Shown piece by piece: positions 1,124 through 46,000 of a stretch of 64,000 nucleotides of DNA (position 1 is the first letter of the stretch; the number at the start of each line of letters is the position of its first letter). This DNA comes from a bacterium (GTDB lineage Bacteria > Patescibacteriota > Minisyncoccia > Phycocordibacterales > UBA6899): contig JAJZQJ010000004.1 in the NCBI GenBank assembly GCA_021851895.1, forward strand, positions 9,127 to 73,126, given 5' to 3'. Position numbers and translations under genes: made by a program. The notes beneath the pieces were generated by a model. It was given only the letters and a program-made list of their open reading frames with translations. It was not told the DNA's origin and ran no database searches.

Positions 1124-1150
1124 GAAAACGCCCTTGGGCGTTTTCTTTAT
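1124..1150. terminator. bidirectional rho-independent terminator
   Basis: hairpin aaaacgcccttgggcgtttt flanked by A-run/T-run between convergent genes. Confidence 0.7.
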
Positions 1151-1653
1151 GGGATACAGCGACAGTTTGCATATTGTCCGCCTGAAGAAGGTTGGTTGTA
1201 CCCACCGCAGTCCGTGAATGGATATTTCGGTGGTACATAGGTGTAGAAGTGAATGATCGCTTTGATCGTACTTGTACAGAAATCGTTTCCTGACCCGGAA
1301 GTGTAGTCACCAAGGCGGTAATAATAGTAGTTGTCGTTTTGGAATACGAAAGGACGAGAGAGATAACCTCCACTCACGAGATTGTCCATGAATGGTGTCG
1401 ATGTTGATTGGCTGAGATCCGCCCAGCCATCGGAGCGCAGTGGTACGGGGTTTGGAAGTGTATCATTGTTGGAGTCGGCATAATTCATGATCGCGAGATA
1501 AAGCTGGTCCATCTCCGCAAATGCACGTGCGTCGCGTGCTTTGAGCCGCGCACTATTAAGCGTTGCGAGCACGACACTCGAAAGAAGAGAAATGATCGCG
1601 ATGACGACGAGCAATTCGATGAGGGTGAATCCGCGACGTGTTTTCATCTTCAT
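1147..1653 (-). CDS. type IV pilin-like protein (prepilin-type N-terminal cleavage/methylation domain)
   Basis: N-terminus MKMKTRRGFTLIELLVVIAIISLLSSVVLATL = class III signal peptide G|FTLIELL. Confidence 0.8.
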   Translation of the reverse strand: MKMKTRRGFTLIELLVVIAIISLLSSVVLATLNSARLKARDARAFAEMDQLYLAIMNYADSNNDTLPNPVPLRSDGWADLSQSTSTPFMDNLVSGGYLSRPFVFQNDNYYYYRLGDYTSGSGNDFCTSTIKAIIHFYTYVPPKYPFTDCGGYNQPSSGGQYANCRCIP

Positions 1654-5269: not shown

Positions 5270-6349
5270 ATGATATCCCTAGATGATTATGATTACGATC
5301 TTCCGCAGGAACATATCGCGAAGGATCCCGCGCAGCCACGAGAGAGCGCACGTCTTTTCGTATACAACACGGCAACTGATGAGATCTCCTTTGATACGTT
5401 TGCGAATATAAGGCAGTATCTTCCGAAAGACACACTTCTTGTATTCAATAATACTCGCGTCATCCCCGCACGCCTTTGGCTTAAAAAGGAGACTGGAGGG
5501 AAGATCGAGGTCTTGCTCATGATGAATGAATACCGTGCTGGCGATGCGCTCATCAAGGGTGTTGTGGATCGCAAGATCACGAAGGGTGCGAAATTGTATT
5601 TTAGGAATGGTGCATGGCTCGAAGTCGATCACCAGGAAGAGCAGTATTTTTTCTTTAAGCCCAGCTTCTCTATGCCTGAGATATGGACATTGCTCGATGA
5701 CGAAGGAGTCACCCCGATACCTCCATATATAAAAGGGTCTTCGCTCAATGAAAAGGCATTGCGCGAAGAATATCAAAGCGTACTTGCAAAGGTGCCTGCG
5801 TCGGTCGCCGCACCGACCGCATCGTTGCATTTCTCCGATGTCCTCCTTGGTGAGCTTGAGGAGAAAGGTGTACAGCGTGCAGAGGTCACACTCCATGTTG
5901 GCGCAGGAACGTTTGCTCCGATCGGGCCAGAGAATTTCGCATCGAAGAAGTTGTTCACTGAATATTTTTCGGTAGACGATGAGAATGCAGAGAAGATCAA
6001 TATTGCAAAAGCTGATCGCGTATCGGTGATTCCCGTAGGGACCACGGCACTACGCACATTGGAGTCTGCTGCGGTGATCGATCATATCGACGAGCGCGGT
6101 GAAACCCACTACAAAATCGCGGTCGAGCATGGCAAGCCGACGGACATCTTTGTCTATCCACCGTATGATTTCAAGATCGCCGATGCGCTCATCACGAATT
6201 TTCATGTTCCACGCTCATCACTCATGCTCCTCGTGGACGCGATGCTTGAAGCGAAAGGTGCAAAGCGTCGCATCAAAGAGCTCTATGCGATCGCAATGAA
6301 AGAAAACTTTCGTTTCTACTCATTTGGTGATGGAATGCTGATCTTGTGA
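5270..6349 (+). CDS. queA: S-adenosylmethionine:tRNA ribosyltransferase-isomerase
   Basis: N-terminus MISLDDYDYDLPQEHIA, LLVFNNTRVIPARL, TTALRTLES, YSFGDGMLI all match QueA. Confidence 0.8.
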   Translation: MISLDDYDYDLPQEHIAKDPAQPRESARLFVYNTATDEISFDTFANIRQYLPKDTLLVFNNTRVIPARLWLKKETGGKIEVLLMMNEYRAGDALIKGVVDRKITKGAKLYFRNGAWLEVDHQEEQYFFFKPSFSMPEIWTLLDDEGVTPIPPYIKGSSLNEKALREEYQSVLAKVPASVAAPTASLHFSDVLLGELEEKGVQRAEVTLHVGAGTFAPIGPENFASKKLFTEYFSVDDENAEKINIAKADRVSVIPVGTTALRTLESAAVIDHIDERGETHYKIAVEHGKPTDIFVYPPYDFKIADALITNFHVPRSSLMLLVDAMLEAKGAKRRIKELYAIAMKENFRFYSFGDGMLIL

Positions 6350-6478
6350 GTTTTCGAAAGGACGCCCTCTGTGGCGTTTTTTCTTTACTTTGCATATGAA
6401 GAGTGCTACTATGCGCGCAGAATTTTTCGCATTGAGTTTTCTTGATGCGTCCGCATAAGTGCGGGGGAGGTAAGAGCA

Positions 6479-7066
6479 ATGCGCATTGCCGCCACCCTTG
6501 GTGTCGATGAAGGATCTCGCGTGGCTCGCACGATCGTGTCTGCGATCAACGAAGCGAAGTCGTGCCCCGAGCAGACCGCGAACTTCAATTGTCTTGGGGT
6601 GACCATCGCGGTCAACCCCGATTCCGTACCGCGACTGATCTTTGACGAATTTCTCCGTGTCCTCAACGGGCGCCTCGAAGGGGTGGTCGGTCCATACCCA
6701 ATCGATATCCCCATCGAAGACCTTTCTGTGCCTTCTTTGCGTGCGCGCATAGAAGCGGAGCTTGCGTTCGCGGAGCCCATGGCCGTCAATAGTGAGCCCG
6801 CATGGACCGAGTTCAAGACGATGAATCGGGATGTCTGCGGATACGCCCAAAGCATGGTTGAGTATATCGAGCGATGGGCTCGATTGATGCAGGTGCGGAT
6901 ACGCGCGGGGCAGAAGATTGAAGACGTAGCCATCGGTGCCTCGTATGAGGCAGATTTCGATGGTATCCGTCTGCTCGTGTTTCAGCGAGCTATGGTCGAG
7001 CTTTCTTTGCACTGGAAATTCGGTAAGGAACTTCTGCGCGAGCGGTGGCGTGGCCTCTATTGGTAA
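6479..7066 (+). CDS. hypothetical protein
   Basis: strong RBS gggggaggtaagagcaATG; terminator after queA upstream; own terminator downstream. Confidence 0.5.
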   Translation: MRIAATLGVDEGSRVARTIVSAINEAKSCPEQTANFNCLGVTIAVNPDSVPRLIFDEFLRVLNGRLEGVVGPYPIDIPIEDLSVPSLRARIEAELAFAEPMAVNSEPAWTEFKTMNRDVCGYAQSMVEYIERWARLMQVRIRAGQKIEDVAIGASYEADFDGIRLLVFQRAMVELSLHWKFGKELLRERWRGLYW

Positions 7067-7073
7067 ACAACGC

Positions 7074-7110
7074 AAAACTCTGTTAGGCATAGCCTTGGCA
7101 GAGTTTTTTA
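7074..7110 (+). terminator. rho-independent terminator
   Basis: stem ctctg...cagag followed by ttttt. Confidence 0.6.
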
Positions 7111-7244
7111 TAAATACGGCTCTGCGTAGTCATATTTTCCTATGTCCTTGAGTAGTGGGGTGCCCCATTCTTAAGGACATGTGGTCCAATACTATACTTT
7201 GCTGAAAAAAATCAATAAATAGTGCTAAATAAGGCTAAAATCGA

Positions 7245-7273
7245 TTGACAAAAGTAAAATTTGAGAGTAGTAT
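7245..7273 (+). promoter_or_regulatory. sigma70-like promoter TTGACA-17-TAGTAT upstream of rpsS, followed by a ~300-nt leader
   Basis: consensus hexamers read from sequence; leader contains a tandem 14-mer (7411-7438) and a perfect palindrome agaaggcatatgccttct (7538-7556). Confidence 0.45.
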
Positions 7274-7578
7274 CGAATCCAAGCTAATTGAATAAGGAAA
7301 TTTCTACGCCGTGGGAGGATCAGGGGCGCTAGATTTTCTATGTCAATACGCGGTCGAGTAGTGCATGGGAGATAGGATGTAGGTGCTAGTGAATGCAATT
7401 TGTATTTCACTATTCCCTATACCCTATTCCCTATACCCTCGGCATTTAATAGTATCGTTAAACTCCGCATCTTCTTAGAGAAGCTATACGACATCCTCCC
7501 TCGTGTCGGTGATCCTTCGTAAGATTCGGCAGGAACATACAGGGAGAAGGCATATGCCTTCTACCTTCAATCAACAAC

Positions 7579-7923
7579 ATGACGCGTTCACTTAAAAAGG
7601 GTCCTTACGTCTACGATCGCCTCCTCAAGAAAATCGAGGGGAAGCGTCCAGAAGACATGGGGGTCATCAAGACTTGGGCACGTGCGTCGGTCATCTCACC
7701 AGAGATGCTCAACTTCACGTTCGGTGTCCACAATGGAAAGGACTTCATCGAAGTCAAGGTTACTGAGGATATGATCGGACATCGCTTTGGCGAGTTCTCT
7801 CAGACTCGTAAGTTTACAAGACACGGAGGTAAGATGCAGAAGGAGCTCGAGCAGAAGCAGAAGCTCGCTGAGGTAGCTGCAGCAAAGGCAGCAAAGGCTT
7901 CCGGTGATGCTAAGAAGAAGTAA
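7579..7923 (+). CDS. rpsS: 30S ribosomal protein S19 with Lys/Ala-rich C-terminal extension
   Basis: MTRSLKKGPYVYDRLLKKIE...HNGKDFIEV...GHRFGEF matches S19. Confidence 0.9.
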   Translation: MTRSLKKGPYVYDRLLKKIEGKRPEDMGVIKTWARASVISPEMLNFTFGVHNGKDFIEVKVTEDMIGHRFGEFSQTRKFTRHGGKMQKELEQKQKLAEVAAAKAAKASGDAKKK

Positions 7924-7931
7924 AGACGCAT

Positions 7932-8402
7932 ATGCAATACGCAACAGCAAAACTCTCTGCTTATCGCACATCACCTCGTAAGATGGGTCTCGTCGCGGGT
8001 CTCATCCGTGGCATGAAGGCATCACAAGCAGCAGCTGAACTCGAGCATTGTGCAAAGCGCGCAGCTCCAGTCATCGGCAAGCTCCTTGCATCAGCAGTCG
8101 CTAACGCAAAGGCGCTCGGCATGAATGTCGACGCACTTCGCGTCGTCGAGGTCCGTGTAGACAAAGGTTCGGTACTCAAGCGCTCAATGCCACGTGCATA
8201 TGGTCGCGCATATCCGATCCACAAGCACACGAGCCATGTCATCATTAAGCTCGCAGAAGACGTTGCAGCGATCAAGCCAGCAACGAAGGAAACAAAGGCA
8301 GTAAAGGAGGTCAAGGAGACGAAGGTCGCCAAGAAGACCACCGCAAAGAAGGAGGCTAAGGTCGACGCCCCAGCAAAGAAGACCGTAAAGAAGACAAAGT
8401 AA
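7932..8402 (+). CDS. rplV: 50S ribosomal protein L22 with Lys-rich C-terminal tail
   Basis: conserved L22 core then KETKAVKEVKETKVAKK tail. Confidence 0.9.
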   Translation: MQYATAKLSAYRTSPRKMGLVAGLIRGMKASQAAAELEHCAKRAAPVIGKLLASAVANAKALGMNVDALRVVEVRVDKGSVLKRSMPRAYGRAYPIHKHTSHVIIKLAEDVAAIKPATKETKAVKEVKETKVAKKTTAKKEAKVDAPAKKTVKKTK

Positions 8403-8403
8403 T

Positions 8404-9219
8404 ATGTCACATCACGTACATCCCTATGCACACCGCCTTGGCACCATCCGCGGATGGCAGTCACGTTGGTTCGCAGACAACAACAAGGGTGATTACCAGG
8501 CAAATCTTCGCGCCGATGTCCTCCTTCGCCAGTACTTGGAGAAGCGACTTCGCGGCATGCACATTGCAGCGATCGAAATGGAGCGCAATGAGAAGCAGTG
8601 GAAGGTCATCATCAAGACGGGCCGCCCAGGTTTCGTCATCGGCCGTCAGGGCGAGGGCGCAACGAAGCTCAAGGCAGACATTCTCAGCAAGTGTGCACGT
8701 TGGAAGCTCAAGGCTCCAAAGGACATTCGCATCGAGATCGAGGAGGTGCGCACACCAGAGGCAAATGCAGCGATCGTTTCACAGATGGTTGCAGAGGGTC
8801 TTGAGAAGCGCCTTCCTTTCAAGCGTGTCATCAAGCAGACACTCGAGCGTGTTATGCAGACCTATGGCGTTAAGGGAGCTCGCATCGAGATCTCGGGTCG
8901 CTTGGGTGGTGCAGAAATGTCACGTCGCGAATTCGTGAAGGGAGGAAACCTTCCTCTCCAGACGATCCGCGCAGACGTTGAGTTCGCACGCGAGAAGGCA
9001 TACATGACTTACGGAGTCATCGGTATCCAGGTTTGGATTTATAAGGGTGAGGTCTTCGATGGTATGGAGCAGCGCGAAGAGCGCGCACCACGCCGTGATG
9101 ACAATCGTCGCGATGGTCGTCGCGATGGCCGTCCAGCACGTGATTCGCGCGGTCCCCGCGCACCACGCGCAGGGGCACCACGCGCGCCACGTGCACCACG
9201 TGCAGCAGCAACTAATTAA
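8404..9219 (+). CDS. rpsC: 30S ribosomal protein S3 with Arg-rich C-terminal tail
   Basis: KH/S3-C domain GRLGGAEMSRREFVKGG...; tail RRDDNRRDGRRDGRPARDSRGPRAPRAGAPRAPRAPR. Confidence 0.9.
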   Translation: MSHHVHPYAHRLGTIRGWQSRWFADNNKGDYQANLRADVLLRQYLEKRLRGMHIAAIEMERNEKQWKVIIKTGRPGFVIGRQGEGATKLKADILSKCARWKLKAPKDIRIEIEEVRTPEANAAIVSQMVAEGLEKRLPFKRVIKQTLERVMQTYGVKGARIEISGRLGGAEMSRREFVKGGNLPLQTIRADVEFAREKAYMTYGVIGIQVWIYKGEVFDGMEQREERAPRRDDNRRDGRRDGRPARDSRGPRAPRAGAPRAPRAPRAAATN

Positions 9220-9227
9220 TTCGGCAT

Positions 9228-9650
9228 ATGTTATTTCCGAAGAAGGTCAAGCATCGCAAATGGCAGAGTAACCGTTGGAACCCACGCTTCACGCATACGG
9301 AGTCACGCGGTATCACACTCGCATACGGTGCATATGGTTTGAAGGCTGAGTCCGCAGCGCGTATCACCTCGAATCAGATCGAGGCAGCACGCCGCGTGCT
9401 CTCACGCACGATCGGCAAGACTGGCCGTATCTTTATCCGCATCTTCCCTGATCGTCCATACACCGCAAAGGGTGCAGAGACGCCGATGGGTAAGGGAAAG
9501 GGAGATCCGCAGGGCTTCGTTTGCGAAGTGCTTCCGGGTCGTGTCCTCTTTGAGCTCGATGGAGTTACTCCAGAGATCGCTAAGGAGGCAGTGCGTAAGG
9601 CAGGCACGAAGCTCGCCGTCCGCTCTCGTTTCATCACTCGCGTAATCTAA
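9228..9650 (+). CDS. rplP: 50S ribosomal protein L16
   Basis: MLFPKKVKHRKWQ...QIEAARRVLSR...MGKGKGDPQGFV. Confidence 0.9.
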   Translation: MLFPKKVKHRKWQSNRWNPRFTHTESRGITLAYGAYGLKAESAARITSNQIEAARRVLSRTIGKTGRIFIRIFPDRPYTAKGAETPMGKGKGDPQGFVCEVLPGRVLFELDGVTPEIAKEAVRKAGTKLAVRSRFITRVI

Positions 9651-11810: not shown

Positions 11811-12347
11811 ATGAAACTACGGTCACGAAGCGGTTTTACACTCATTGAATTATTGGTGGTCATTGCGATCATTGCCTTGCTCTCGAGTGTTGTACTCGCG
11901 ACACTTTCCACGGCACGTGCGAAGGCACGAGATGCACGCAGAATACAGGATATCAGGCAGTTGCAGCGTGCGATCGAACTCTATGCCGATGATCATGGTG
12001 GCCTCTATCCAACATCGGCGAATTTCGCGACGGTTGCGGATGTGGGTACGACTACCGCATATGGATCGAAGCGCATCACGAGTTCTGTTTACACGACTTG
12101 GGAAACCGATCTTGGACCGTTGCTTGCTCCGTATTTCTCAAAGATGCCGAAGGATCCGATCAATGTCGCGCCATATAGTTATGACTATCTTCCGGATGGA
12201 TATTCGCAATGTCCATCGTCGGCTCCGATGGGGAGTACGACCAAGTATGCGATCATCTTCTCTACTGAAGTGAATACGTATGACCTTTCACCACTTGAAG
12301 CACCGACATATCTTGGCGCAATCGGACGATATTGTGTGACCCCATAA
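11811..12347 (+). CDS. type IV pilin-like protein (prepilin N-terminal domain); paralog of 34635..35165
   Basis: MKLRSRSGFTLIELLVVIAIIALL...; shares ...LYADDHGGLYPTSA... and C-terminal RYCVTP with 34635..35165; preceded by tgctatactatatatATG. Confidence 0.8.
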   Translation: MKLRSRSGFTLIELLVVIAIIALLSSVVLATLSTARAKARDARRIQDIRQLQRAIELYADDHGGLYPTSANFATVADVGTTTAYGSKRITSSVYTTWETDLGPLLAPYFSKMPKDPINVAPYSYDYLPDGYSQCPSSAPMGSTTKYAIIFSTEVNTYDLSPLEAPTYLGAIGRYCVTP

Positions 12348-17320: not shown

Positions 17321-17420
17321 TTATCCAATAGTGTAAGCGTGCGGAGTCGTGCTGCCGCAGCCCATGTTTCATGAGTTGCGCACACACTCCGACTGCTTAC
17401 TACTTCTAAACATTACGCGT

Positions 17421-18692
17421 ATGACCAACTTCTTCAATAAGGTCCACGCGATCTTCGCGGATCCAGTGCTCCGTCGCCGAATGCTCTTCACGATCGGCGC
17501 ACTCGTACTTTTCCGCCTTGCTGCGGCAGTGCCTATTCCAGGTGTTGACGCAACACGACTCGCGCGTGTCCTCGAGCAAAACCAGTTTCTCGGTCTGCTC
17601 AATGTGTTCTCTGGTTCCGGTTTGGGCAATCTCTCGATAGTGATGCTCGGTGTCGGTCCAAGTATCACTGCATCGATCATCATGCAGCTCCTTACGATGC
17701 TCTCGCCGAAATTGAAGGCGATGTATCACGAGGAGGGCGAGCTTGGTCGAAAGAAGTTCTATCAGGTAAGTCGCTTGATCACCATTCCACTCGCGCTCAT
17801 TCAGGGTTTTGGACTTTTGATCTTGCTTCGTAATCAGGGCGTTTTGGGCGCATCGACTCCGTTTACATTGTTCATGAACGTGCTCGTCGTGACGGCAGGA
17901 TCGATCCTCCTTATGTGGCTCGGTGAACTCATTACGGAGTTCGGTGTCGGAAACGGCTCCTCGCTCATCATCTTCGCAGGTATCGTTGTCCGTATCCCGA
18001 GCATCATCGCTCAGGTTGCGGCGAACTACACACCTTCTGACATCCCTATGTATATCGGATTTGCAGTCGTCGCATTCGGCGTTCTTGCAGCGATCATTTT
18101 GATGTCGGAGGCGGAACGTCCTGTTCCGATAACCTATGCGAAATCGGTTGCAGGCGGTCGTCAGATCGGTGGTGTTGCCACCTACTTGCCACTTCGTGTG
18201 AATCAGGCAGGTGTCATCCCAATAATCTTCGCTTTGTCGATGTTCCTCTTCCCACAGCTTATTGGTGGATTCTTGAAGGGACTCGCAAGTCCGACCGCAC
18301 AAAGTATAGGAAACTTTTTGGTGACCTATATCTCAGGCGGATGGATTCACGCAGTGCTCTACTTCTTATTGGTGCTCTTCTTCACGTATTTCTATACAGC
18401 GGTCACTTTCGATCCAGAAGCGATCGCGAAGAATTTGCAGCAGTCAGGAGCATTCATTCCAGGTATACGTCCAGGTGTTTCGACTTCCGAGTATCTCGCG
18501 AAGGTCGTCGCACGTGTGACCTTCCCTGGTGCAGTCTTCCTCGCAGTCATCGCCGTGTTGCCATTCGTGATGCAGAGCATCACCGGCAATCAGGCGCTCG
18601 CGATCGGAGGTACGGCGATCCTCATCGTCGTGTCTGTGGTCACGGATCTTGTGAAGCAGATGAATGCGCAGCTTTCGATGCGCGAATACTAA
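17421..18692 (+). CDS. secY: preprotein translocase subunit SecY
   Basis: 10-TM SecY pattern, N-terminus MTNFFNKVHAIFADPVLRRRMLFT. Confidence 0.9.
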   Translation: MTNFFNKVHAIFADPVLRRRMLFTIGALVLFRLAAAVPIPGVDATRLARVLEQNQFLGLLNVFSGSGLGNLSIVMLGVGPSITASIIMQLLTMLSPKLKAMYHEEGELGRKKFYQVSRLITIPLALIQGFGLLILLRNQGVLGASTPFTLFMNVLVVTAGSILLMWLGELITEFGVGNGSSLIIFAGIVVRIPSIIAQVAANYTPSDIPMYIGFAVVAFGVLAAIILMSEAERPVPITYAKSVAGGRQIGGVATYLPLRVNQAGVIPIIFALSMFLFPQLIGGFLKGLASPTAQSIGNFLVTYISGGWIHAVLYFLLVLFFTYFYTAVTFDPEAIAKNLQQSGAFIPGIRPGVSTSEYLAKVVARVTFPGAVFLAVIAVLPFVMQSITGNQALAIGGTAILIVVSVVTDLVKQMNAQLSMREY

Positions 18693-22798: not shown

Positions 22799-23290
22799 AT
22801 GAAAAGAGGCTTTACACTCATCGAATTATTGGTCGTCATCGCAATCATCGGGCTGCTTTCGAGTGTCGTTCTTGTAACGCTTTCGACGGCTCGTGCAAAA
22901 GGGAGGTTCGCACGTACGATCGCGGATATGCATCAGGTACAGATCGCGGCGGATGCATTCGCTGCCAGTACGGGCGACTACCCCGATGATGCAGTCAATG
23001 GGCAGCTCCCTCCGAATGCGACCAGTGATTTTTTGAGTTCGTGGCCATCCGCGCCCTGTCCTGGCTGGACATATGATTATGATTATTGGCGTCCGACCGA
23101 TTACAGCGTCGTCGCTCCTGAGCAAGAGAAGATGTCGCGTATCGTGTTCCTGCGATCAGGCGTTCCGAGATTCTACTATTGTATAAAACCCGGGATTTCG
23201 AATCTCTGTAAACATCCCGTCGATGAATCGGATCCCACATTCATCGATATCCGAGATAAGGAAATCAAGGAAATAACTTGTGCCGAATGA
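22799..23290 (+). CDS. type IV pilin-like protein
   Basis: MKRGFTLIELLVVIAIIGLLSSVVLVTL; -10 TATACT 13 nt upstream of ATG. Confidence 0.75.
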   Translation: MKRGFTLIELLVVIAIIGLLSSVVLVTLSTARAKGRFARTIADMHQVQIAADAFAASTGDYPDDAVNGQLPPNATSDFLSSWPSAPCPGWTYDYDYWRPTDYSVVAPEQEKMSRIVFLRSGVPRFYYCIKPGISNLCKHPVDESDPTFIDIRDKEIKEITCAE

Positions 23291-23326: not shown

Positions 23327-23815
23327 ATGAAAGTGCAGAATAAAGGTTTCACACTCATCGAACTCCTCGTCGTGATTGCAATAATCGCCTTGCTCTCGAG
23401 TGTTGTCCTTGCGACACTTGCGGTATCTCGGGCAAAAGGGAGAGATGCCAAGCGCAGGAGTGATCTTGAGCAGATGCGCATCGCTTTGGAATTATATTAT
23501 GATGCCACAGGTGGATATCCTTCATCGAGTGATGGAAATTGTGACGCGATTGACGATCGTAGTTTTCTGCCCGGGGGTTGTCTCGAGGTACTTGTAACGG
23601 GAGGATATCTTCCGAGACTTCCCGAAGATCCACTCGCAACATCGACCGATCCGCTCTACCGCTACGATGATTACTGTGCACTTCCTGCTCCCGCTGCGCG
23701 CAATAACCAGCGCTATCGTTTCATTGCAGATACTGAGTTGCCTGCTGGTGGACTCGCCAATAATCTCTGGGGAGAGAATCAGGTAGTCATCGCTTCGTGC
23801 GCTGACCCAAAGTAA
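23327..23815 (+). CDS. type IV pilin-like protein
   Basis: MKVQNKGFTLIELLVVIAIIALL; upstream tgctatactatatatATG identical to the motif at 11811. Confidence 0.8.
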   Translation: MKVQNKGFTLIELLVVIAIIALLSSVVLATLAVSRAKGRDAKRRSDLEQMRIALELYYDATGGYPSSSDGNCDAIDDRSFLPGGCLEVLVTGGYLPRLPEDPLATSTDPLYRYDDYCALPAPAARNNQRYRFIADTELPAGGLANNLWGENQVVIASCADPK

Positions 23816-24629: not shown

Positions 24630-24853
24630 GAACGCCACTTCGTGGGCCAGGCGTTCTTGCCTGTAGATGAGCCGCCACCGCGGCACACAACAACTCAATT
24701 AAAACCACCACTAAAGCATAGTGGTTTTAATTTTTCAGGTAAGAAATACCCTTCGTGGGCCAGGCGTTCTTGCCTGTAGATGAGCCGCCACCGCGGCACA
24801 CAACAACTCAATTAAAACCACCACCAAAGCATAGTGGTCTTAATTTTTCAGGT
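24628..24853 (+). repeat. two tandem direct repeats (~113 nt each), each carrying two hairpins
   Basis: unit aagaacgcc...ggccaggcgttcttgcctgtagatgagccgccaccgcggcacacaacaactcaattaaaaccaccac.aaagcatagtgg.tttaatttttcaggta repeated; followed by a third terminator 24855-24887. Confidence 0.85.
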
Positions 24854-24996
24854 AGAACAAAAGACCCCCTTGGGGTCTTTTGTTCTGTGCGAACCCTACG
24901 GAGCTTTGTCCAACGAATGCCACTGATATGATCTCTTGATTGACCTTTATGTAAAGTCATGCCTACACGGTATTTACTGTGATACAATATGCGCAT

Positions 24997-26622
24997 ATGC
25001 GATCGTTGAAAGAAGGTTTCACGCTTATTGAATTGTTGGTGGTCATTGCAATAATCGCCTTACTTTCAAGTGTTGTGCTCACTGTGCTCACCACGGCACG
25101 TTCGAAGGCGCGCGATAGCCAGCGTATTCGGAATGCACACGAGCTTTCTCTGGCGCTCGAGCAGTATGAGTCGACCGAAAATACTTACAGGGTCGCGGGT
25201 GCAGGATACGCAAATTCTGGTGGCGGTTATGTTGCAAAAGGCGCAGAGACTTTAGGATATTCAAACTCGATCATCACGGTACTTAGTGCGAAGGGTTACT
25301 ATACGGCGGACACTTTATCAGATCCAATATATGGAACGGATAATTATTATCTCGGGATGTGCACTTCAACGTATAGTGTCTTTTTGAAAGTTGAGCAACC
25401 AGAATTGCAGCAATCTTCTTCAACGATTGCTTCTGCGTGCGATGGTGTAAATGCCTCCGCAGCAGGATTCAATTTTATTGCTGGTGGTGGTGATTATGGG
25501 GCGGCCAGTGGCGTTGCGGCAGGTGGCGGTTTCATTACTTCACTTACGGGTGATGTAGATCCGACGTTTGTCTCTGGGCAATATGGGGGCGCCGATGGCT
25601 CCATTTATGATCTTAGGATCCAGAGTGATGGCAAGGTTGTCGTTGTCGGCAACTTCTCCAGCATGTTCAATGGATCGTCTCGGCGAGGCGTTGCAAGAGT
25701 CAATGGAGATGGCTCTCTCGATGCGAATTTTGCAGCAACTTGTGGGCTTGACGTCGGAGGGTCGACCCTGGAGACACAGTCAGACGGCAAGATCATCGTG
25801 GGTGGTGGTTTTTCGACATACTGTGGTAGCTCATCAAAAAATCTTGTACGCTTAAATCCTGATGGTTCGATCGATACGAGTTTCATTGGAAATGGTGCCC
25901 CCGATGGCGCTGTGCGTACGATGAAGTTCCAGCAAGATGGGAAATTGATCATTGGTGGTGATTTCTTGAAGGTGGGTGGAGTATCGAGTCCACATATAGC
26001 AAGATTGAATGTCGACGGTTCCCTTGATTCTTCCTTCTCGGTTGGTTCTGGTTTCGATCAATATCCGCTTTCATTGGCTGTACAGTCAGACGGGAAGATT
26101 GTTGCGGCGGGTATTTTCGTCTCATTCAACGGAACAGCTCGAAATCACGTTGCTCGCCTGAATGGAGATGGTTCTCTTGATGTAACCTTCACTTCTCCGA
26201 TCATCGGAGGAAGTTTTGCACAGGCCTTGAGTATACAGAGTGATGGAAAGATCATCGTCGGTGGGGGATTCGGTGCGTGGAATTTTTCATATTATAACTT
26301 GCTGCGGATGCTACCCGATGGAACCATTGATTCGAGCTTTAATACAGGTACTGCTCCTGATAGCACGGTGTATAGCACTCTCGTGCTTCCAAACGGGGAG
26401 ATCCTCATTTCGGGTGCGTTCAATCATTATAATGGGGTGACGAGAAACAAAGTGGCGTTGCTCAAGTCCGATGGCACACTCGACACAGGTTTCGCATCGG
26501 TAGCGGATACGATTAATTACATTCTTGCTCTCGGTCTACAAAGTGATGGTCGCGTGATTCTTGGAGGAACCTTCACGAGTTATGGGGGAATACCTCAGTC
26601 AGATCTCGCACGTGTCCAATGA
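24997..26622 (+). CDS. prepilin-type N-terminal domain fused to delta-60-repeat beta-propeller domain
   Basis: MRSLKEGFTLIELLVVIAIIALL N-terminus; at least 7 repeats of ..DGS[LI]D.[ST]F..G.. about every 55-60 aa (GDGSLDANF, PDGSIDTSF, VDGSLDSSF, GDGSLDVTF, PDGTIDSSF, SDGTLDTGF). Confidence 0.7.
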   Translation: MRSLKEGFTLIELLVVIAIIALLSSVVLTVLTTARSKARDSQRIRNAHELSLALEQYESTENTYRVAGAGYANSGGGYVAKGAETLGYSNSIITVLSAKGYYTADTLSDPIYGTDNYYLGMCTSTYSVFLKVEQPELQQSSSTIASACDGVNASAAGFNFIAGGGDYGAASGVAAGGGFITSLTGDVDPTFVSGQYGGADGSIYDLRIQSDGKVVVVGNFSSMFNGSSRRGVARVNGDGSLDANFAATCGLDVGGSTLETQSDGKIIVGGGFSTYCGSSSKNLVRLNPDGSIDTSFIGNGAPDGAVRTMKFQQDGKLIIGGDFLKVGGVSSPHIARLNVDGSLDSSFSVGSGFDQYPLSLAVQSDGKIVAAGIFVSFNGTARNHVARLNGDGSLDVTFTSPIIGGSFAQALSIQSDGKIIVGGGFGAWNFSYYNLLRMLPDGTIDSSFNTGTAPDSTVYSTLVLPNGEILISGAFNHYNGVTRNKVALLKSDGTLDTGFASVADTINYILALGLQSDGRVILGGTFTSYGGIPQSDLARVQ

Positions 26623-26655: not shown

Positions 26656-26694
26656 AAAACAAAAAAAAGACCCCTTGGGGTCTTTTTGTTTTGG
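26656..26694. terminator. bidirectional terminator
   Basis: aaaaaaaagaccccttggggtctttttgtttt. Confidence 0.75.
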
Positions 26695-26696
26695 CT

Positions 26697-27110
26697 TTAG
26701 TAGCCCATCATGTTTTGGACAGGAAGTCCTGGCTGTGCGCTTGGGCTTACCTGGAGGTAGTAGCCTCCCATCGTTCCACGACCCTGGCCGTAATAGTTTA
26801 CATTACGCATCATGCCACTGCGGTAACCGTAGTCACCATAGCCATAATCCATCATGCGTCCATAACCATACTCACCTCGGAACTCGCCTACTTTGACGCC
26901 GAGCCAAAAGACGAAGAAGAGCATACCGAGAAGGAGCACAATGCGAAGGACACGGTGCTTGTTCCATAGGCAATGACCGTACATATGGTCGTGCTTATGC
27001 ATTTGCTCGCCCATTTCGCCACCATTGTGATGATGGTCGTGATCACAGAATTCACACATATTATGATGTTGTTTATTGTTAATATGTACACCGCAGTCGC
27101 GGTTATGCAT
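26697..27110 (-). CDS. His-rich / Gly-Tyr-rich small membrane protein (possible metal-binding), probably leaderless
   Basis: HNMCEFCDHDHHHNGGEMGEQMHKHDHMYGHC then TM helix VLRIVLLLGMLFFVFWLGV then GYGYGRMMDYGYGDYGYRSG; TATAAT immediately before the ATG. Confidence 0.4.
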   Translation of the reverse strand: MHNRDCGVHINNKQHHNMCEFCDHDHHHNGGEMGEQMHKHDHMYGHCLWNKHRVLRIVLLLGMLFFVFWLGVKVGEFRGEYGYGRMMDYGYGDYGYRSGMMRNVNYYGQGRGTMGGYYLQVSPSAQPGLPVQNMMGY

Positions 27111-28421: not shown

Positions 28422-31400
<2,979 letters not shown>

Positions 31401-31513: not shown

Positions 31514-31638
31514 GCATTGATAGAGGTGGCTCGACGTTGTGGACCCACCCGGTCTCATTCCGAACCCGGAAGTGAAACATGATAGTGCCGATGATACTCC
31601 TCAGAAGGGGGAAAAGTAGGTAGCTGCCTCGATCAATG
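31514..31638 (+). rRNA. rrf: 5S ribosomal RNA
   Basis: ccggaagtgaaacatgatagtgccgatg... typical 5S; terminal helix cattgatagaggtggc / gctgcctcgatcaatg. Confidence 0.8.
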
Positions 31639-34634: not shown

Positions 34635-35165
34635 ATGAAAGCGTCGAACGAAAAAGGTTTTACACTGATCGAACTTCTGGTTGTCATTGCGATCATCGGA
34701 TTGCTTTCGAGCGTCATCGTCGCTACGTTGTCTACGGCGCGAGCGAAGTCAAGAGATGCGCGTCGCATAAGTGACATACGAGAGATTCAGAAAGCCCTCG
34801 AGCTTTATGCGGACGATCATGGTGGACTCTATCCGACTTCAGCGAGCTTTGCGGATTATACGGAGGACGCAGGAGCGCTTGGTGCGAAGAAATATGTCAC
34901 AAGTAGGATGACTGAGTGGGATACAGTCTTTGCGCCACTAATTGCGGCATATATGAAGACAGTACCGAAAGACCCACTCAATGACCCTTGGCCCTATGTC
35001 TATTATTATCTTCCTGAAGGTCATGTCGCGTGTACATCCTCTGGTGTTATTGATGGCATGACGCGATATACATTGGTATTCTCGACAGAAGTAAGCAATT
35101 TCGATCTTCAGCAGATCTCCGCAGGGCAGGGAGGATCACAGGCGCGCTATTGTATGACGCCATAA
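34635..35165 (+). CDS. type IV pilin-like protein; paralog of 11811..12347
   Basis: MKASNEKGFTLIELLVVIAIIGLL...; ends RYCMTP; TATACT 6 nt upstream of ATG. Confidence 0.8.
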   Translation: MKASNEKGFTLIELLVVIAIIGLLSSVIVATLSTARAKSRDARRISDIREIQKALELYADDHGGLYPTSASFADYTEDAGALGAKKYVTSRMTEWDTVFAPLIAAYMKTVPKDPLNDPWPYVYYYLPEGHVACTSSGVIDGMTRYTLVFSTEVSNFDLQQISAGQGGSQARYCMTP

Positions 35166-39175: not shown

Positions 39176-41437
39176 ATGCAAACATCGACATATAAGATCA
39201 AGGGCATGCATTGCGCATCATGCGCAATAAGTATTGAGGATACCTTCAAGAAGACTGCAGGTGTTGTGTCTGCGAATGTGAACTACGGGACAGAGGCCGC
39301 AAAGGTCTCATTCGACGAAAGTACTATTTCGCCCGCAGATCTTTCAAAGAAGATCGAGCCATTAGGGTACTCGCTCGTCGTTGAGGAGGAGCAGACGATG
39401 GCGGGGATGGATCATGCAAAGATGGAGTCCGCAGATGAACTCAAAGTGATGGGACAGAAGGTCTTCTCGATGATCCCATTTGCGGTCATGAGTATCTTCA
39501 TCATGACTTGGGATATTCTCGGGAGCTTGCGGTATGTCCCGAAGATGTCAAATACTGAAGCTACCTTTTTCCATCACCTCTTGCCAGTGATGGCAACAGC
39601 AACACTCGCCGTGCTCGGACGACCTTATCTCTTGGGTATCTATCGTTTCATTCGTTATGGAAAGGCGAATATGGATACACTTGTCGGTATTGGTACTTCG
39701 GCCGCATTCCTCTATAGTTTTGCGCTCGGAGCTTTCGAAAATGTGCTTCGTCCATATCTCAACGTCGATCAAGGGTATTACGATGTGACCGTGGTCGTTC
39801 TCGTATTCATCGCGCTTGGTAAATATCTCGAGTTGCGCTCGAAACGCAAGACGGGAGATGCAATCGAGAAGCTGCTCAATCTGCAGGCAAAGAAAGCGCT
39901 CGTGCGTCGACAGGATGGCGAGATCGAAATCCCCATGGAAGAGGTCGTGCACGGCGACATCGTCATCGTGAAGCCCGCAGAAAAGATTCCTGTCGATGGT
40001 ACGATCATCGAGGGATCGACCTATGTCGATGAATCGATGATCTCAGGGGAACCGATGCCTGTAAAGAAGAATGTGGGCGATAGTGTCGTTTCGGGAACGA
40101 TCAATACGACGGGGGCATTTAGCTTTAAGGCGACAAAGGTCGGTAGTGAGACCATGCTCGCACGCATTATTGCGATGGTGGAAGATGCACAGGGAAGTAA
40201 GGCGCCGATCCAAGCGCTCGCAGATAAGATCTCTGCGGTATTCGTTCCTGTCGTTCTTGTGCTTGCCGTGCTTGCATTTGGATCTTGGCTGCTTGTCGCA
40301 CCGCAATATATCGGTTTTGCGAAGGCGCTCTCTGCCGGCCTCGTTTCATTCGTTGGTATCCTCGTGATCGCTTGTCCTTGTGCGCTCGGACTTGCAACGC
40401 CGACTGCGATCATCGTCGGTGTGGGCAAAGGTGCCCGTGAAGGAATACTTGTGAAGGATGCTGCAACACTTGAGACACTGCACAAGGCGAATGTCGTCGT
40501 ATTAGATAAGACGGGAACGATCACCAAGGGAAAGCCTGAGCTTGCCTCAGTCATGAACTTCTCTGGCCAGGACGATGAAGAGGTGCTCAGTGTGCTTGCG
40601 TCCCTCGAAAAGAAGTCTGAACATCCGATCGCACACGCTATTGTGACGCATGCAGCGGAGCGCAAGATCGCACTCAAGGAAGTCAAAGATTTCCAAGCGA
40701 TCAAAGGCAAGGGAATAGAGGGAACCATCGAAGATGTTGTCTATTATGCAGGAAATACAAAGCTCATCGCAGATCTTCGTCTTGCTTTCGATACCGCGAC
40801 GTTGGCTGAGGAAACGAAGAGAGGGAAGACACCGATCATCCTCGCAACAAAAGAAAAGGTCGTAGGAGTGGTTATGGTCGCTGATGCAGTGAAGCCGGAG
40901 GCTATTGTGGCGATCGCACACCTCCATAAGCTGGGTATCAAAACGGTGCTGCTTACGGGTGATGATAGCAATACTGCACTCGCCATCGCAAAAGAAGTCG
41001 GCATTGATGATGTGGTCGCAGAGGTGCTCCCTGAGGATAAACTCAATAAGGTAAAGGAATTACAGGCAAAGGGGCTTGTCGTTGCAATGGCTGGAGATGG
41101 CGTCAACGACGCACCCGCACTCGCACAGGCAAATGTTGGCATCGCGATGGCAACAGGCACTGATGTGGCGATTGAATCTGCAGGGATCACATTGCTTCAC
41201 GGTGACATTGCAAAACTCGTGAAGGCTATCGAGCTCTCCCGTGTCACCATGCGTACGATAAAACAGAATCTCTTTTGGGCTTTTATCTACAACATCATCG
41301 GCATCCCGCTCGCAGGCGGCGCATTCTATCCACTCTTCGGTTGGTTGCTCTCACCGATCTTTGCTGGACTTGCAATGGCATTCTCGAGCGTCTCCGTTGT
41401 TTCGAATTCATTGCGTTTGAAGATGATAAAACTTTAA
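39176..41437 (+). CDS. copA: copper-translocating P1B-type ATPase
   Basis: N-terminal [11 protein letters not shown]; CPC in TM6; DKTGTIT; [10 protein letters not shown]; YN....P and M..SS motifs of Cu(I) subtype. Confidence 0.9.
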
Positions 41438-41440
41438 TTC

Positions 41441-42475
41441 ATGGAAAATAAAAACACATATACATTTCACGTTAGCGGAATGCATTGCAAATCTTGCGTG
41501 CTTGTGACGGAAAGCAAGATCGGCGAAGCTGAGGGCGTAAGCGATGTGAAGACTGACCTCGCGACACAAACAGTACACGTCGTCGGCGACTTCTCGGGAA
41601 AGACGAGGGAGGAGGTGCGGGGTCTACTCTCTGCGACCATCGAAAAGCATGGATATGCCCTCGATGATGGAGCAGTAGAAGCTGATGGCGGAAAACGTTG
41701 GTCAGAGTTCGCATACGCACTTCCAATAGCGATGCTCTTCGTTTTTCTCTTCATCTTCTTGCAGCGCGTGGGGCTCGTGAATCTCATCGGTACAGGTAAG
41801 CCGACCTATGGCACCGCATTCATCGTCGGCATTGTCGCCTCGCTTTCATCATGTATGGCGGTTGTCGGAGGCCTCGTCCTCTCGATGGCAGCAACCTTCG
41901 CAAGGACAGGTGATCGCGTGAAGCCGCAGGTACTCTTTCACGTTGGTAGACTCGTTTCATTCTTCATCCTCGGTGGAGTTATTGGCATGCTCGGTTCTGC
42001 CTTTCAATTGAACGGATTGGGAACATTCATATTGTCGCTTGTCATCGGTGTGACAATGTTCATACTTGGTGTGAATCTCCTTGACATATTCCATGTAGCC
42101 AAAAAATTTCAGCTTGCGATGCCGAAGTTCCTTGGCGCTCATGCGATGAATCTTACGAAGGTCAATCACGCACTTACACCATTTCTCGTCGGTGTGGCGA
42201 CATTCTTTCTTCCTTGTGGTTTCACGCAATCGATGCAGATATATTCGCTTGGCACGGGGAGTTTCACGGTGGGCGCACTTACCATGTTCACCTTCGCACT
42301 GGGTACGCTTCCTGTACTTGCGCTGCTCTCATTCAGTTCGTTCGGAATTGCCGATGGTAAATGGTCTGGAGTGTTCTTTAAGACTGCCGGACTCATCGTC
42401 ATTGTCTTCGCGATTTTCAATATTATTAATGGGGCGGCCGCATTTGGTCTTATCCGTCCTGTCTTCAGCTTTTAA
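41441..42475 (+). CDS. HMA (CopZ-like) domain fused to a polytopic membrane domain (DsbD_2/TauE-like permease)
   Basis: N-terminus HVSGMHCKSCV; about 7 predicted TM helices. Confidence 0.5.
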   Translation: MENKNTYTFHVSGMHCKSCVLVTESKIGEAEGVSDVKTDLATQTVHVVGDFSGKTREEVRGLLSATIEKHGYALDDGAVEADGGKRWSEFAYALPIAMLFVFLFIFLQRVGLVNLIGTGKPTYGTAFIVGIVASLSSCMAVVGGLVLSMAATFARTGDRVKPQVLFHVGRLVSFFILGGVIGMLGSAFQLNGLGTFILSLVIGVTMFILGVNLLDIFHVAKKFQLAMPKFLGAHAMNLTKVNHALTPFLVGVATFFLPCGFTQSMQIYSLGTGSFTVGALTMFTFALGTLPVLALLSFSSFGIADGKWSGVFFKTAGLIVIVFAIFNIINGAAAFGLIRPVFSF

Positions 42476-42478
42476 TCG

Positions 42479-42895
42479 ATGAAAGAGATTTTTATAAGTG
42501 TTGTTGTTGCAGTCAGCCTCATGCTGATCGGGATGTTCTTTGCGGGAAGATTGAGTATCGGTGGAGCAGCGCAGGGTGATGCGGATAGTGGCAATCAGGC
42601 AAGTGTTCAGAATGTGAGTATGGTTGATGGCAAGCAAATCATCGAGGTTACCGCGCGTGGTGGCTACTCTCCACGTTTCTCGGTCGCAAAGGCAGGTGTA
42701 CCAACGGTCATTCGCATGAAAACAGAAGGGACGTTCGATTGCTCGTCGATATTCACATTACCATCGCTCGGTATACGTGAGGCGCTTCCATCGTCTGGGG
42801 TAAAGGATATCGACATACCCGCACAAGTATCAGGCACGACGCTCACGGGCACCTGTGCGATGGGTATGTATAGCCTCCAGGTACAATTCCAGTAG
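42479..42895 (+). CDS. membrane-anchored cupredoxin-like domain protein
   Basis: TM anchor then IEVTARGGYSPRFSVAKAGVPTVIRMKTEG...TGTCAMGMYS resembling the Cupredoxin_1 fold with C/M ligands. Confidence 0.45.
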   Translation: MKEIFISVVVAVSLMLIGMFFAGRLSIGGAAQGDADSGNQASVQNVSMVDGKQIIEVTARGGYSPRFSVAKAGVPTVIRMKTEGTFDCSSIFTLPSLGIREALPSSGVKDIDIPAQVSGTTLTGTCAMGMYSLQVQFQ

Positions 42896-43073
42896 AGTCA
42901 AAGTCATGAGTCCTTGTTTCAAGTCATGAGTCATGAGTGTGAGTCATGAGATAAATATAGGAATTCACAAAGAATACACAAGCAAAAATGCTCGTGTATT
43001 TTTCGTATTTGTTTGTTCTCATGACTCATGACTTTAACTCATGACATGAAACAAGGGCTCATGACTTGGCATT
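42896..43073. repeat. inverted-repeat element built from tandem GTCATGA/AGTCATG heptamers, with an internal terminator-like hairpin
   Basis: arms gagtcaaagtcatgagtccttgtttcaagtcatgagtcatgagtgtgagtcatgag and ctcatgactcatgactttaactcatgacatgaaacaagggctcatgac; core atacacaagcaaaaatgctcgtgtattttt. Confidence 0.8.
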
Positions 43074-43090
43074 ACGCCTGTGTTATTATT

Positions 43091-46000
43091 ATGGGAGCTA
43101 TGTTACCTAATGAGGAAATGCATGAAGTCGTACCAGCAGCGCCGATAGTCGAATCGGAACTCGCACACGTTCGTGAGCAGGTTTCTTTGCGCGAGGCAGT
43201 CGCCCAGGCTAAAGGCGTCGAGATGCCGCGCAGTCAGATCGTATCTAAGGTGCTTGCAGAGTATGCAGATCAGAAGCCCGAAGATGTACTTCCAGAACAT
43301 GCGATCATCGGCAATCCGAAATTCGAGGAGATCGTGCGCTCTGTCGATGCGCTTCCGCATCGCGAGAAGATTCGTGAGCTCTATGCGATCATGCAGGAGC
43401 GTGGCATATTGAATGCGATAAAAATCGCAGAAGGGCTCGGCAATCCTCACGTTGAGGAAGATTTTCATCATGTGCTCGTCCATTATGTGCATACCGGATC
43501 ACTTATACCTGGTCTCGATAAGGAAAAGGAGCTGCGTAAGGAATTAGATCGCACGGTATTTCAGGTGGTTGTTCCATTGCAGAAAGAGCGCGGTGAGGTG
43601 GATCCCCAGCAGGTACTGCTCTCTATGCAGCGTTTTCTCTCGGGCATCTTTGGTCAAGGTGGAGGTGACGTGCAGTATGCATTCGAGATAGCGCTCCCGA
43701 ACTTCTCCTCAGACGTTTCATTTTTTGTCACTGTTCCTGATGAGCAGAAAGACCTTTTCTTGAAGCAATTCTTGGGTAATTTCCCTACTGCAAGGGCGAT
43801 GCCGATCGATGATGACTACAATATCTTTAATGAGTTTGGTGTCTCAGCGGTCGCCGTCGGTAGGCATGAAAAGCGTTTCGCCTATGCACTTTCGGTTCCT
43901 GAGGGGGCGATGGAGTCCCTCTCACCTATCCTTGCTGCTTTTTCAAACATCGCGCATCAGGGTGAAGCTGCCGCGATTCAGTACATCGTTCGTAAAGACG
44001 ATCGGGATCTCTTGAAGAAGACCCGTTCCGCTATAGGAAAGATAAACGGTGGCATGAAGATCGGTGAGGCGACAGATATTCCGCTCACTCTTGGTGGCGA
44101 TACGATGAAATTCATCGGCAATCTTTTCTCTTCTGAAAAAGAGAAGTCGAAAGAGATCTCTCCTGAGGAGCAAGAACGACGTAATAGGGAGATCAAGGTC
44201 ATTGAAAATAAGACCGTTGCACCTTTTGTGCGTGTCGATCTGCGCATCATTGTGTCCTCTCCTGACCGCGATCGAACGATGCAAATTCTCAATGCACTCA
44301 TCGCGGCTTTTGGACAATTTGCGAACCGCGAATCGTCTGGTGGGCTACGCTTCGATGTGATCACGCGGGGAAGTGCGTTCGATGAGCAGCTCCACGCATT
44401 CACCTATCGCCTGGGAACGAATGATGCTCTTGTGTTGAATCACAATGAATTTTCTGGACTCTTTCATCCACCGCTTGCGATCACTGCAGCAGAAGCACCG
44501 AACCTCGCATCGATAAAATCTGCTACGGCTCCGCCCCCAGCACAACTTTCAGAGGAGGGGACTTTGCTCGGTGAAAGCGTCTATCGCGGTGTGCGAAAGC
44601 CTGTTCGCATGCTTCCACAGGATCGTCTCCGTCATCTCTATGTTATCGGTCAAACCGGTACAGGTAAGACCACGATCATGAAGAACATGATCATCGAGGA
44701 CATTAAGGCAGGTAATGGTGCGTGCTTCATTGATCCGCATGGTTCTGATGTGCAGGATATTCTCGCAAACATTCCCAGAGACCGTATTGATGATGTCATC
44801 TATTTTGATCCCTCATATACTGCGCGTCCGTTTGGGCTCAACATGCTCGAGTATGATGAATCTCGCCCCGAGCAGAAGATCTTTGTCGTGAATGAGCTGC
44901 TCGCGATCTTCAAGAAACTCTATTCGTCCTCACCAGAGTCGATGGGTCCCGCATTCGAGCAATATTTCCGTAACGCAACGATGCTCGTTATGGAGGATCC
45001 CGAAACAGGGAACACGATGCTCGAGATCACGCGCGTGCTTGCCGATGCGAAGTTCAGAGATTTGAAGCTCAGTAGGTGTAAGAACCCGATCGTCACACAG
45101 TTTTGGAGAGACATCGCAACAAAATCGACCGGTGAAGCATCGCTTGCGAACATGGTCCCGTACATCACGAATAAATTCGATGTATTCATTTCGAATGACG
45201 TGATGCGTCCGATCATCGCCCAGCAACGTTCCTCGTTCAACTTCCGGGATATCATGGATAACAAGAAGATCCTTCTTGTGAATCTCGCAAAAGGAAAGCT
45301 TGGTGAGATGAATGCGAATCTCCTCGGTATGATCATCGTTGGTAAGCTCTTCCTTGCTGCAATGAGTCGCGTGGATTCTTATGGTATGAAGTTGCCAGAC
45401 TTCTACCTCTATATCGATGAATTCCAAAACATCTCTACGCCATCGATCGCAGGAATCCTCTCTGAAGCAAGAAAGTATGGTCTTTCACTCAATATCGCAC
45501 ACCAGTTCATTGCGCAGATCGACCCTGAAATACGTGACGCGGTATTCGGTAATGTTGGTTCAATGGCAGTATTCCGTATCAGCGCAGACGATGCGCAGTA
45601 TCTCGAGTCGCACTTCTCTCCGACTTTCACCGCGACCGATCTTATGAAGATCGAGAGTCATAATTGCTATCTGAAGCCACTTATCAACGGAGTACCTGTT
45701 GCTCCATTCAATATTGCTGTATATCCGCCAAATAAGGGCGTTCCTCAAATCGTTGAGCAGTTACAGCAGCTCTCATACATGAAATATGGAAGAGAGCGTG
45801 AAGTGGTTGATAGTGCAATCGTAAAGAAATATCAGCAAACTGCAGCAGCGGCTTCGAATCAGCCAAAACCATCTGCGCCGGCAGCACCAGCACCAAAGCC
45901 TGCGCCAGCGCCGATGGTCCAGCAGCCATTTGTTCCGTCGCCGCAGGCTCTCGCATACCCTCAGCAGCAACCATTTGCGCAGCCACAAATGCAGCCTTAC

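Follow-up and report, generated by a model that had tools for sequence, protein, structure and literature searches.

We report here that a gene at 24997..26622 (+ strand) of a 64,000-nucleotide stretch of bacterial DNA (the window; contig JAJZQJ010000004.1, positions 9,127 to 73,126) encodes a complete modular prepilin, in which a type IV pilin module is joined through a flexible linker to seven delta-60 repeats that are predicted to form a seven-bladed beta-propeller. We give a probability of roughly 0.6 to the reading that the product is a minor type IV pilin of two modules from a Paceibacteria-like bacterium of the candidate phyla radiation (CPR), with the propeller, carried at the tip of the filament or sparsely along it, as the surface-binding effector. 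A sequence-only reading of the same DNA, made earlier by a model, had described a 540-residue fusion of a prepilin-type N-terminus to a delta-60 propeller. The architecture stood and the length did not: translation from the ATG at 24997, within a + strand open reading frame (ORF) of 24979..26622 that includes the stop codon, gives 541 residues, matched by Pfam N_methyl and seven copies of DUF5122 and by TIGR02532 and TIGR02608. A protein identical to this product (P0001) is present in the NCBI, ENA, and Logan assemblies.

The prepilin-type N-terminus that had been proposed was borne out by two profile searches of the 541-residue protein, in which PF07963 (N_methyl) scored 29.1 bits against a cut-off of 21.2 and TIGR02532 scored 30.1 bits against a cut-off of 16.3. 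The sequence begins with a basic seven-residue leader, MRSLKEG (residues 1-7, 24997..25017, + strand), after which FTLIELLVVIAIIALL follows, placing Gly at -1, Phe at +1, and Glu at +5; the predicted prepilin-peptidase cut lies after Gly7. The predicted mature N-terminus, FTLIELLVVIAIIALLSSVVL, continues from Phe +1 and Glu +5 into approximately 20 hydrophobic residues, as in class III signals, and Glu12 (Glu +5) is conserved in 90% or more of the carrier-pilin family described below. AlphaFold2 predicted a helix over residues 10-61 with a predicted local distance difference test (pLDDT) score of about 90 or above, and we assign residues 8-61 (25018..25179, + strand) to the alpha-1 helix, which would carry Glu +5 into the predicted assembly interface of the filament core. 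Sequence matches to the N-terminus in the PDB were limited to type IV pilins and pseudopilins (Thermus PilA, a Geobacter pilin, PilE1, and GspG) and to the alpha-1 region, with Thermus PilA found at E = 9e-10 when the PDB was searched with the family profile. A Pfam scan of the whole protein at E ≤ 0.01 gave DUF5122, N_methyl, and Rax2 only. Judged by sequence, the protein opens with a canonical class III signal peptide and continues as a pilin helix.

Beyond the helix, residues 62-162 (25180..25482, + strand) make up a globular pilin head containing the motif DPIYGTDNYYLGxC, which is the carrier domain common to the family. AlphaFold2 modeled it with a small beta-sheet and with pLDDT mostly between 80 and 95, and it is 56-62% identical to its metagenome orthologues. 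Cys122, Cys148, Y117, and Y118 are each at least 90% conserved among 43 family members, and the conservation of the two cysteines matches what is expected of a pilin disulfide loop; a Cys122-Cys148 disulfide probably stabilizes the head. The head is followed by a Gly-rich linker, GGGDYGAASGVAAGGGFIT (residues 163-181, 25483..25539, + strand), which is predicted to be flexible (pLDDT below 50 at residues 165-181). The orthologues carry Gly-rich linkers at the same place, variable in length and sequence.

The remainder of the protein (residues 182-541, 25540..26619, + strand) consists of delta-60 repeats, of which the sequence-only reading had counted at least seven. There are exactly seven and none more: PF17164 (DUF5122) matched in seven stretches with 265.9 bits against a cut-off of 27 (E = 1e-80), and cutting the sequence at DGS[LI]D yields seven units of 50-53 residues that span residues 184-541. 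The hydrophobic beta-strand block that had been noted before each repeat is found as QSDGKxxxGGxF in all seven units. A chance match is excluded by a wide margin at these E-values. The comparison with TIGR02608 (delta-60) that the same reading had suggested gave 178.5 bits against a cut-off of 76.5 over six stretches, and the nearest propellers came mostly from Bacteroidota proteins with type IX secretion system (T9SS) tails. At the DNA level we found no tandem repetition within the gene, which rejects a recent amplification of blades and indicates that they are old and diverged.

Structure prediction agreed with the repeat count. An AlphaFold2 model built from an alignment of 74 sequences (mean pLDDT 87.9, predicted TM-score 0.72) comprised the long helix at 10-61, a compact head to approximately residue 162, disorder at 165-181, and seven blades, each repeating one pattern of three long strands and short ones, with pLDDT mostly above 90 across the repeat region. 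When this model was compared with the PDB by Foldseek, the WD40 propeller of Doa1 (3odt) matched at E = 1.3e-11 with a TMt of 0.74, and further seven-bladed propellers (WDR5, the sensor domain of BT4663, and CylK) matched at E values of 1e-11 to 1e-9. The likeness is generic to seven-bladed propellers, with sequence identities of 9-16%. We predict with high confidence, on the strength of the model, that residues 182-541 fold as a seven-bladed beta-propeller, as had been anticipated. Pfam scans of the 541-residue protein gave no match to a T9SS C-terminal sorting domain (PF18962 or type C), to the propeller domain of the PilY1 type (IPR008707), or to RCC1 repeats (PF00415), and the protein stops at blade 7; no catalytic family profile in Pfam or TIGR matched it. 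IPR013431 is taken here to be the entry for the delta-60 repeat.

Searches with the propeller alone and searches with the head gave very different pictures of the gene's relatives. The propeller-only query retrieved thousands of delta-60 proteins, and the best 119 of these were proteins of approximately 630-950 residues without a pilin signal, most of which carried T9SS sorting domains; those with named sources were mostly from Bacteroidota. Word-indexed searches with the pilin part returned short pilins only and missed the query's own protein; negatives from such searches with sub-domains of long proteins are unreliable, and the apparent result, that there are no fusions, was set aside for that of the exhaustive search described below. 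A metagenome scan with alignment of the head only recovered full-length orthologues. The locus L085 encodes a 544-residue protein with pilin, linker, and seven copies of DUF5122 that is 43% identical to the modular pilin from end to end, and the same pilin, linker, and delta-60 architecture is found in L086 (with a longer Gly linker) and in the proteins P0250, P0262, and P0275. L088 encodes another delta-60 carrier (P0251), directly followed by P0242, a 170-residue copy of the head without a module (L088:1476-1988). The head and linker recur in L084 (head 62% identical), there joined to a Fib_succ_major (FISUMP) module, and the related locus L083 runs into the linker after a frameshift.

When 1.84 billion cluster representatives were searched exhaustively by phmmer with residues 41-168 of the head, 82 matched, 44 of them at E ≤ 1e-10, most of which are 330-920 residues long with the head at approximately residues 40-170. 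We took a census of Pfam modules in 43 members of this family. N_methyl was detected in 38 of the 43; the C-terminal modules included Kelch families (up to eight members), DUF5122 and propellers of the Vgb-lyase type (NHL/Vgb-like; five members each), DUF6242 (four), RCC1 (three; P0276, P0280, and P0287), Laminin_G_3 (LamG; two), and Fib_succ_major (one). Because such varied modules, most of them beta-propellers, stand behind the same head and linker, we conclude that the head is a dedicated carrier.

Several loci of the family showed further arrangements. A second delta-60 ORF in L085 (31-498) ends 68 bp upstream of the modular pilin gene of that locus, and the two are tandem paralogues. In L090 (Logan SRR22388261), positions 2488-9255 hold two delta-60 modular pilin genes, 1.6 kb apart, whose products are 553 and 921 residues long (the latter with approximately 14 repeats); ndk immediately precedes each, with adk in the vicinity. 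As adk lies near the gene in the window, in L085, and in L090, the neighborhood is loosely conserved. In L091, the gene for a related modular pilin with an RCC1 module lies midway along a ribosomal-protein operon. Five proteins of 986-2,860 residues (P0266, P0273, P0277, P0282, and P0294) contain four to six internal stretches that resemble part of the head (query residues ~10-93), and their sequences suggest that a head-like domain is repeated there outside a pilin setting.

Several comparisons hint at an exchange of modules within the family. Between the modular pilin and its delta-60 orthologues, the heads are 56-61% identical and the propellers 34-37%, whereas between L086 and L088 the propellers are 72% identical and the heads 55%. 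The nearest head (P0243, 66% identity) bears Kelch repeats. In a neighbor-joining tree of 45 heads, computed without support values, module types are interspersed and the delta-60 carriers are scattered, which suggests exchange of modules. The propeller of the modular pilin also matches Bacteroidota proteins better (42-47% identity, 267-289 bits) than it matches the delta-60 modules of sister carriers (177-210 bits), in a comparison biased by the preselection of the Bacteroidota set as the best matches out of billions. In GC content, the head (46%), the propeller (49%), and the window (50%) show no compositional trace of a recent transfer of the propeller. These signs of exchange, drawn from sequence comparison, are indicative and do not amount to proof. 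The Kelch module on the nearest head, the scattered delta-60 carriers, the Bacteroidota-like propeller, and the contrast between L086 and L088 leave room for a tentative and rather doubtful proposal that Paceibacteria-like CPR bacteria possess a plug-and-play system, in which the head and Gly linker would act as a universal socket onto which unrelated beta-propeller and lectin modules (delta-60, Kelch, RCC1, NHL/Vgb-like, DUF6242, LamG, and FISUMP) have been grafted time and again by recombination at the linker, and in which the module would set the host or surface. If so, module swaps would alter the host or surface to which the cell can attach, much as swaps of phage receptor-binding proteins alter host range.

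The organism was placed through SecY (17349..18692), which is 55-69% identical to SecY of metagenome-assembled genomes of Paceibacterota, Lloydbacteria, Nomurabacteria, and Adlerbacteria and less than 50% identical to that of other phyla. This identifies it as a Paceibacteria-like member of the CPR (Patescibacteria), in line with the CPR-like organism that had been supposed. The window contains six prepilin genes with nearly identical N-termini, GFTLIELLVVIAII, and an additional module is present only in 24997..26622. All six leaders are short, basic, and end in Gly, those of the other five being 4-8 residues long. The near identity of the N-terminal part of alpha-1 in all six implies a shared system of processing and assembly. 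The other five are of ordinary size: products of 163 residues (22799..23290, + strand; N_methyl 32.1 bits) and 162 residues (23327..23815, + strand; N_methyl 34.6 bits, with a weak T2SSG match), both candidates for a partner or the major pilin and both also found by motif scan; approximately 176 residues from MKASNEKG/FTLIE (34635..35165, + strand; N_methyl 34.6 bits and motif scan); and 178 residues (11811..12347, + strand) and 168 residues (1147..1653, - strand), the last two from motif scan and alignment. These five genes are dispersed in housekeeping regions (ribosomal-protein genes, secY-adk-map, and metG), outside any pilus operon. Ahead of the modular pilin gene the order is adk (- strand), the two ordinary pilin genes of 163 and 162 codons, and map. 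Among the SecY-anchored loci of 22 CPR relatives, none has a pilin and delta-60 gene downstream of secY-adk-map.

Proteins of this general design have been described before, and the novelty that the sequence-only reading implied is correspondingly lower. Modular pilins were defined by Raynaud et al. (2021), who listed 1,219 proteins in 264 architectures, many of them from CPR bacteria, and proposed that the bulky module is presented at the pilus tip and binds ligands (PMC8179133). The protein described here has the features by which they were defined, with a pilin module at residues 1-162, a disordered linker at 163-181, and seven copies of DUF5122. It shares the class III signal, the small pilin module, the short linker, and the bulky non-pilus module with PilB (pilin and von Willebrand factor A [vWA] module) and PilC (pilin and lectin) of Streptococcus sanguinis, and the grafted vWA module of PilB acts as an adhesin (PMC8179133). 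It differs from these two proteins in that its module is a predicted seven-bladed delta-60 propeller and not a vWA or concanavalin A-like domain, it comes from a CPR bacterium, and it is known from sequence. Dataset S1 of the same paper contains the combination IPR012902-IPR013431 (one or two copies) in five proteins, as well as Kelch, RCC1, FISUMP (40 proteins), and PF13385 architectures (PMC8179133). The 2021 catalogue thus probably includes the combination of pilin and delta-60 repeats.

A functional precedent comes from the Saccharibacteria, in which the minor pilin PilX2 of Nanosynbacter lyticus TM7x bears at its C-terminus a propeller of seven RCC1 blades (PMC11623550). Deletion of pilX2 lowered host binding from approximately 10.6% to 4.6% while filaments were still formed. 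Of 56 Patescibacteria phyla, most have homologues of pilB, pilT, pilM, and pilC (PMC11623550). Both proteins belong to CPR organisms and join a pilin-like N-terminus to a C-terminal propeller with seven blades, PilX2 being proposed as adhesin of a type IV pilus that takes part in the binding of the episymbiont to its host; the likeness extends to the family, in which sister carriers bear RCC1 propellers. The present propeller is of the delta-60/DUF5122 family, without RCC1, and follows a canonical GFTLIE signal, whereas PilX2 reportedly has no predicted PilD signal (PMC11623550). The gene also lacks nearby pilus machinery, unlike pilX2, which shares a locus with pilA2 in TM7x.

Further parallels can be drawn with other surface proteins. 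PilY1/PilC of Pseudomonas and Neisseria present a beta-propeller at the tip of a type IV pilus for adhesion; however, PilY1 is not a pilin and rides on a minor-pilin complex, and its propeller family (IPR008707) is the one unmatched here. The delta-60 proteins of Bacteroidota are the nearest sequence relatives of the propeller over its seven blades, at the identities given above, but they are approximately 800-950 residues long with approximately 14 repeats, are exported by the type IX pathway through PF18962 tails, and have no pilin N-terminus. The type IVb minor pilins CofB (enterotoxigenic Escherichia coli) and TcpB (Vibrio cholerae) also combine a pilin domain, a flexible linker, and extra beta-rich domains, and they are located at the tip, where they initiate assembly or bind partners (PMC8179133). 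Their extra domains, in contrast, are a beta-repeat and a beta-sandwich, these pilins act as trimers, and no sequence relation to them was detected. We found no further paper in the searchable library that ties pilins, propellers, and Patescibacteria together.

These precedents, modular pilins (PMC8179133) and PilX2 of TM7x (PMC11623550), underlie our functional reading, and by analogy with them it is reasonable to infer display on a filament, location at the tip, a role as adhesin, and recognition of a host. Prepilin peptidase would remove the seven-residue leader after Gly7, and the alpha-1 helix with Glu +5 would then dock the subunit into the helical core of a type IV filament, whose main component would be one of the ordinary pilins of 160-180 residues encoded nearby. 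The head, stabilized by the probable disulfide, would act as the carrier, and the Gly-rich tether of approximately 19 residues would hold the 360-residue propeller off the fiber. Because of its bulk, the subunit would be placed at the tip or sparsely along the fiber. The propeller may then bind a surface ligand, most likely a glycan or a protein on a host cell or substrate, after which retraction of the pilus would draw the small cell onto its target. By analogy, then, the bacterium probably uses the propeller pilin to grip a host cell or a surface.

Several observations weigh against this proposal. Pfam scans of 40 further ORFs of the window turned up no PilB/PilT ATPase, PilC, PilM/N/O, or prepilin peptidase (Peptidase_A24, T2SSE, T2SSF), and no pilus machinery lies beside the two family members with readable neighborhoods. 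Sequence searches of the PDB detected no solved structure of a natural delta-60 protein, and the literature on "delta-60 repeat," IPR013431, and DUF5122 yielded no functional information and no experimentally known ligand. Synonymous sites are saturated in every pair for which dN/dS was compared between head and propeller (dS >1.1 or undefined), so diversifying selection on the propeller is inseparable from replacement of the module. The lack of linked machinery, in the window and in relatives, would also suit a protein whose pilin N-terminus is a membrane anchor or a short pseudopilus stalk and whose propeller binds surfaces close to the envelope, with no long retractile pilus. Such a protein would resemble the sugar-binding proteins of the archaeal "bindosome" that have class III signal peptides, or the pseudopilins of type II secretion systems; profile matches to the pseudopilins GspG, GspH, and ComG equal those to type IV pilins (all below cut-offs), and a module of 360 residues is bulky and hard to fit into the body of a filament. 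We nevertheless regard an anchor as unlikely, as the protein keeps a complete pilin head with its conserved Cys pair, superfluous in a simple anchor, both precedents (PilB and PilX2) are associated with real pili, and six prepilin genes in 64 kb favor a genuine filament system.

If the protein is displayed on a pilus, its propeller could be something other than an adhesin. An enzyme (a lyase, a glycosidase, or an alkylating enzyme) that modifies or breaches the host surface is suggested by the presence of CylK, an enzyme, among the Foldseek matches, by the propellers of the Vgb-lyase type on sister carriers, and by the peptidase-module modular pilins already catalogued (PMC8179133). The absence of any match to a catalytic family and the generic nature of the Foldseek likeness make this very improbable, and the same carrier bears classic binding domains (LamG lectin, FISUMP, Kelch, and RCC1). 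The pilus might instead serve competence, the propeller catching DNA or docking on lysed prey so that nucleic acids can be scavenged; CPR bacteria rely on scavenged nucleotides. The N-terminus has a weak likeness to ComGC/D/E/F. There is also a hint that one pilus of TM7x may serve DNA uptake (PMC11623550). The likeness to ComG proteins is confined to the generic N-terminal part of alpha-1 and falls far below the cut-offs, no com genes lie nearby, and no DNA-binding feature was identified in the propeller, and we consider a part in DNA uptake very improbable. Least credible of all is an artefact of assembly or annotation, or a decaying gene without function. The 90%-identity cluster of the protein has a single member and one related locus (L083) is frameshifted, but the identical protein comes from independent assemblies, its frame is intact and followed by a strong terminator, and several full-length orthologues from different samples have the same architecture, which makes an artefact unlikely in the extreme.

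The flanks of the modular pilin gene contain several features of their own. A bidirectional terminator-like hairpin, AAAAAGACCCCTTGGGGTCTTTTT (26664..26687; 10-bp stem with T-runs on both strands in a terminator scan), separates the gene from a convergent, His-rich ORF of 137 codons on its downstream side (26697..27110, - strand). The interval between map and the modular pilin gene holds a tandem duplication (24638-24854) of a 113-bp unit in 1.9 copies that are 98% identical, and each copy terminates in a terminator-like hairpin. A single unit folds more stably than its shuffles (z = -3.9); it has no credible Rfam match and no further copy in the window. An extra hairpin, GACCCC...GGGGTC (24861-24879), follows the repeats and resembles the terminator at 26664-26687.

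Elsewhere in the window, a 241-codon ORF (1638-2363, + strand) falls in the alternative oxidase family by its match to PF01786 (E = 3.8e-35). Such an oxidase is unexpected in a CPR bacterium, since CPR bacteria usually lack respiratory chains. A 1,774-codon ORF (47164-52488, + strand) has zero Pfam matches, and the 1,074-codon ORF upstream of it (43028-46252, + strand) has weak signatures of coupling proteins of the VirD4/TraG type (TrwB_AAD_bind, TraG-D_C, and DUF87); the two may form a module for secretion or a conjugation-like process, or else encode giant surface proteins. Copper handling is represented by a cluster at 39176-42895 (+ strand) that comprises genes for an HMA-domain P-type ATPase and for a membrane protein with HMA and DsbD_2 domains, together with a cupredoxin-like ORF (weak, below the Pfam cut-off). 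The 23S rRNA (28429-31395) and 5S rRNA (31522-31632) genes are present in the window and no 16S rRNA or tRNA gene was found there, so the rRNA operon appears split. The tmRNA gene (62040-62427) adjoins smpB (61388-61843).

A propeller-bearing pilin is of a kind already known, and the gene described here extends known biology and overturns nothing. Host recognition and attachment in the CPR are largely unknown beyond a few cultured Saccharibacteria, in which a propeller-bearing minor pilin appears to be an adhesin, and our analysis points to the same design, with a propeller of a different family, in an uncultured Paceibacteria-like lineage. The most interesting by-product is the carrier-pilin family itself, with its interchangeable propeller and lectin modules. 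With this family defined, its variable C-terminal modules are obvious candidates for determinants of host range, and soluble domains such as residues 182-541 may serve as probes (in glycan arrays, pull-downs, and fluorescent labeling of environmental cells) for the hosts of uncultured CPR bacteria.

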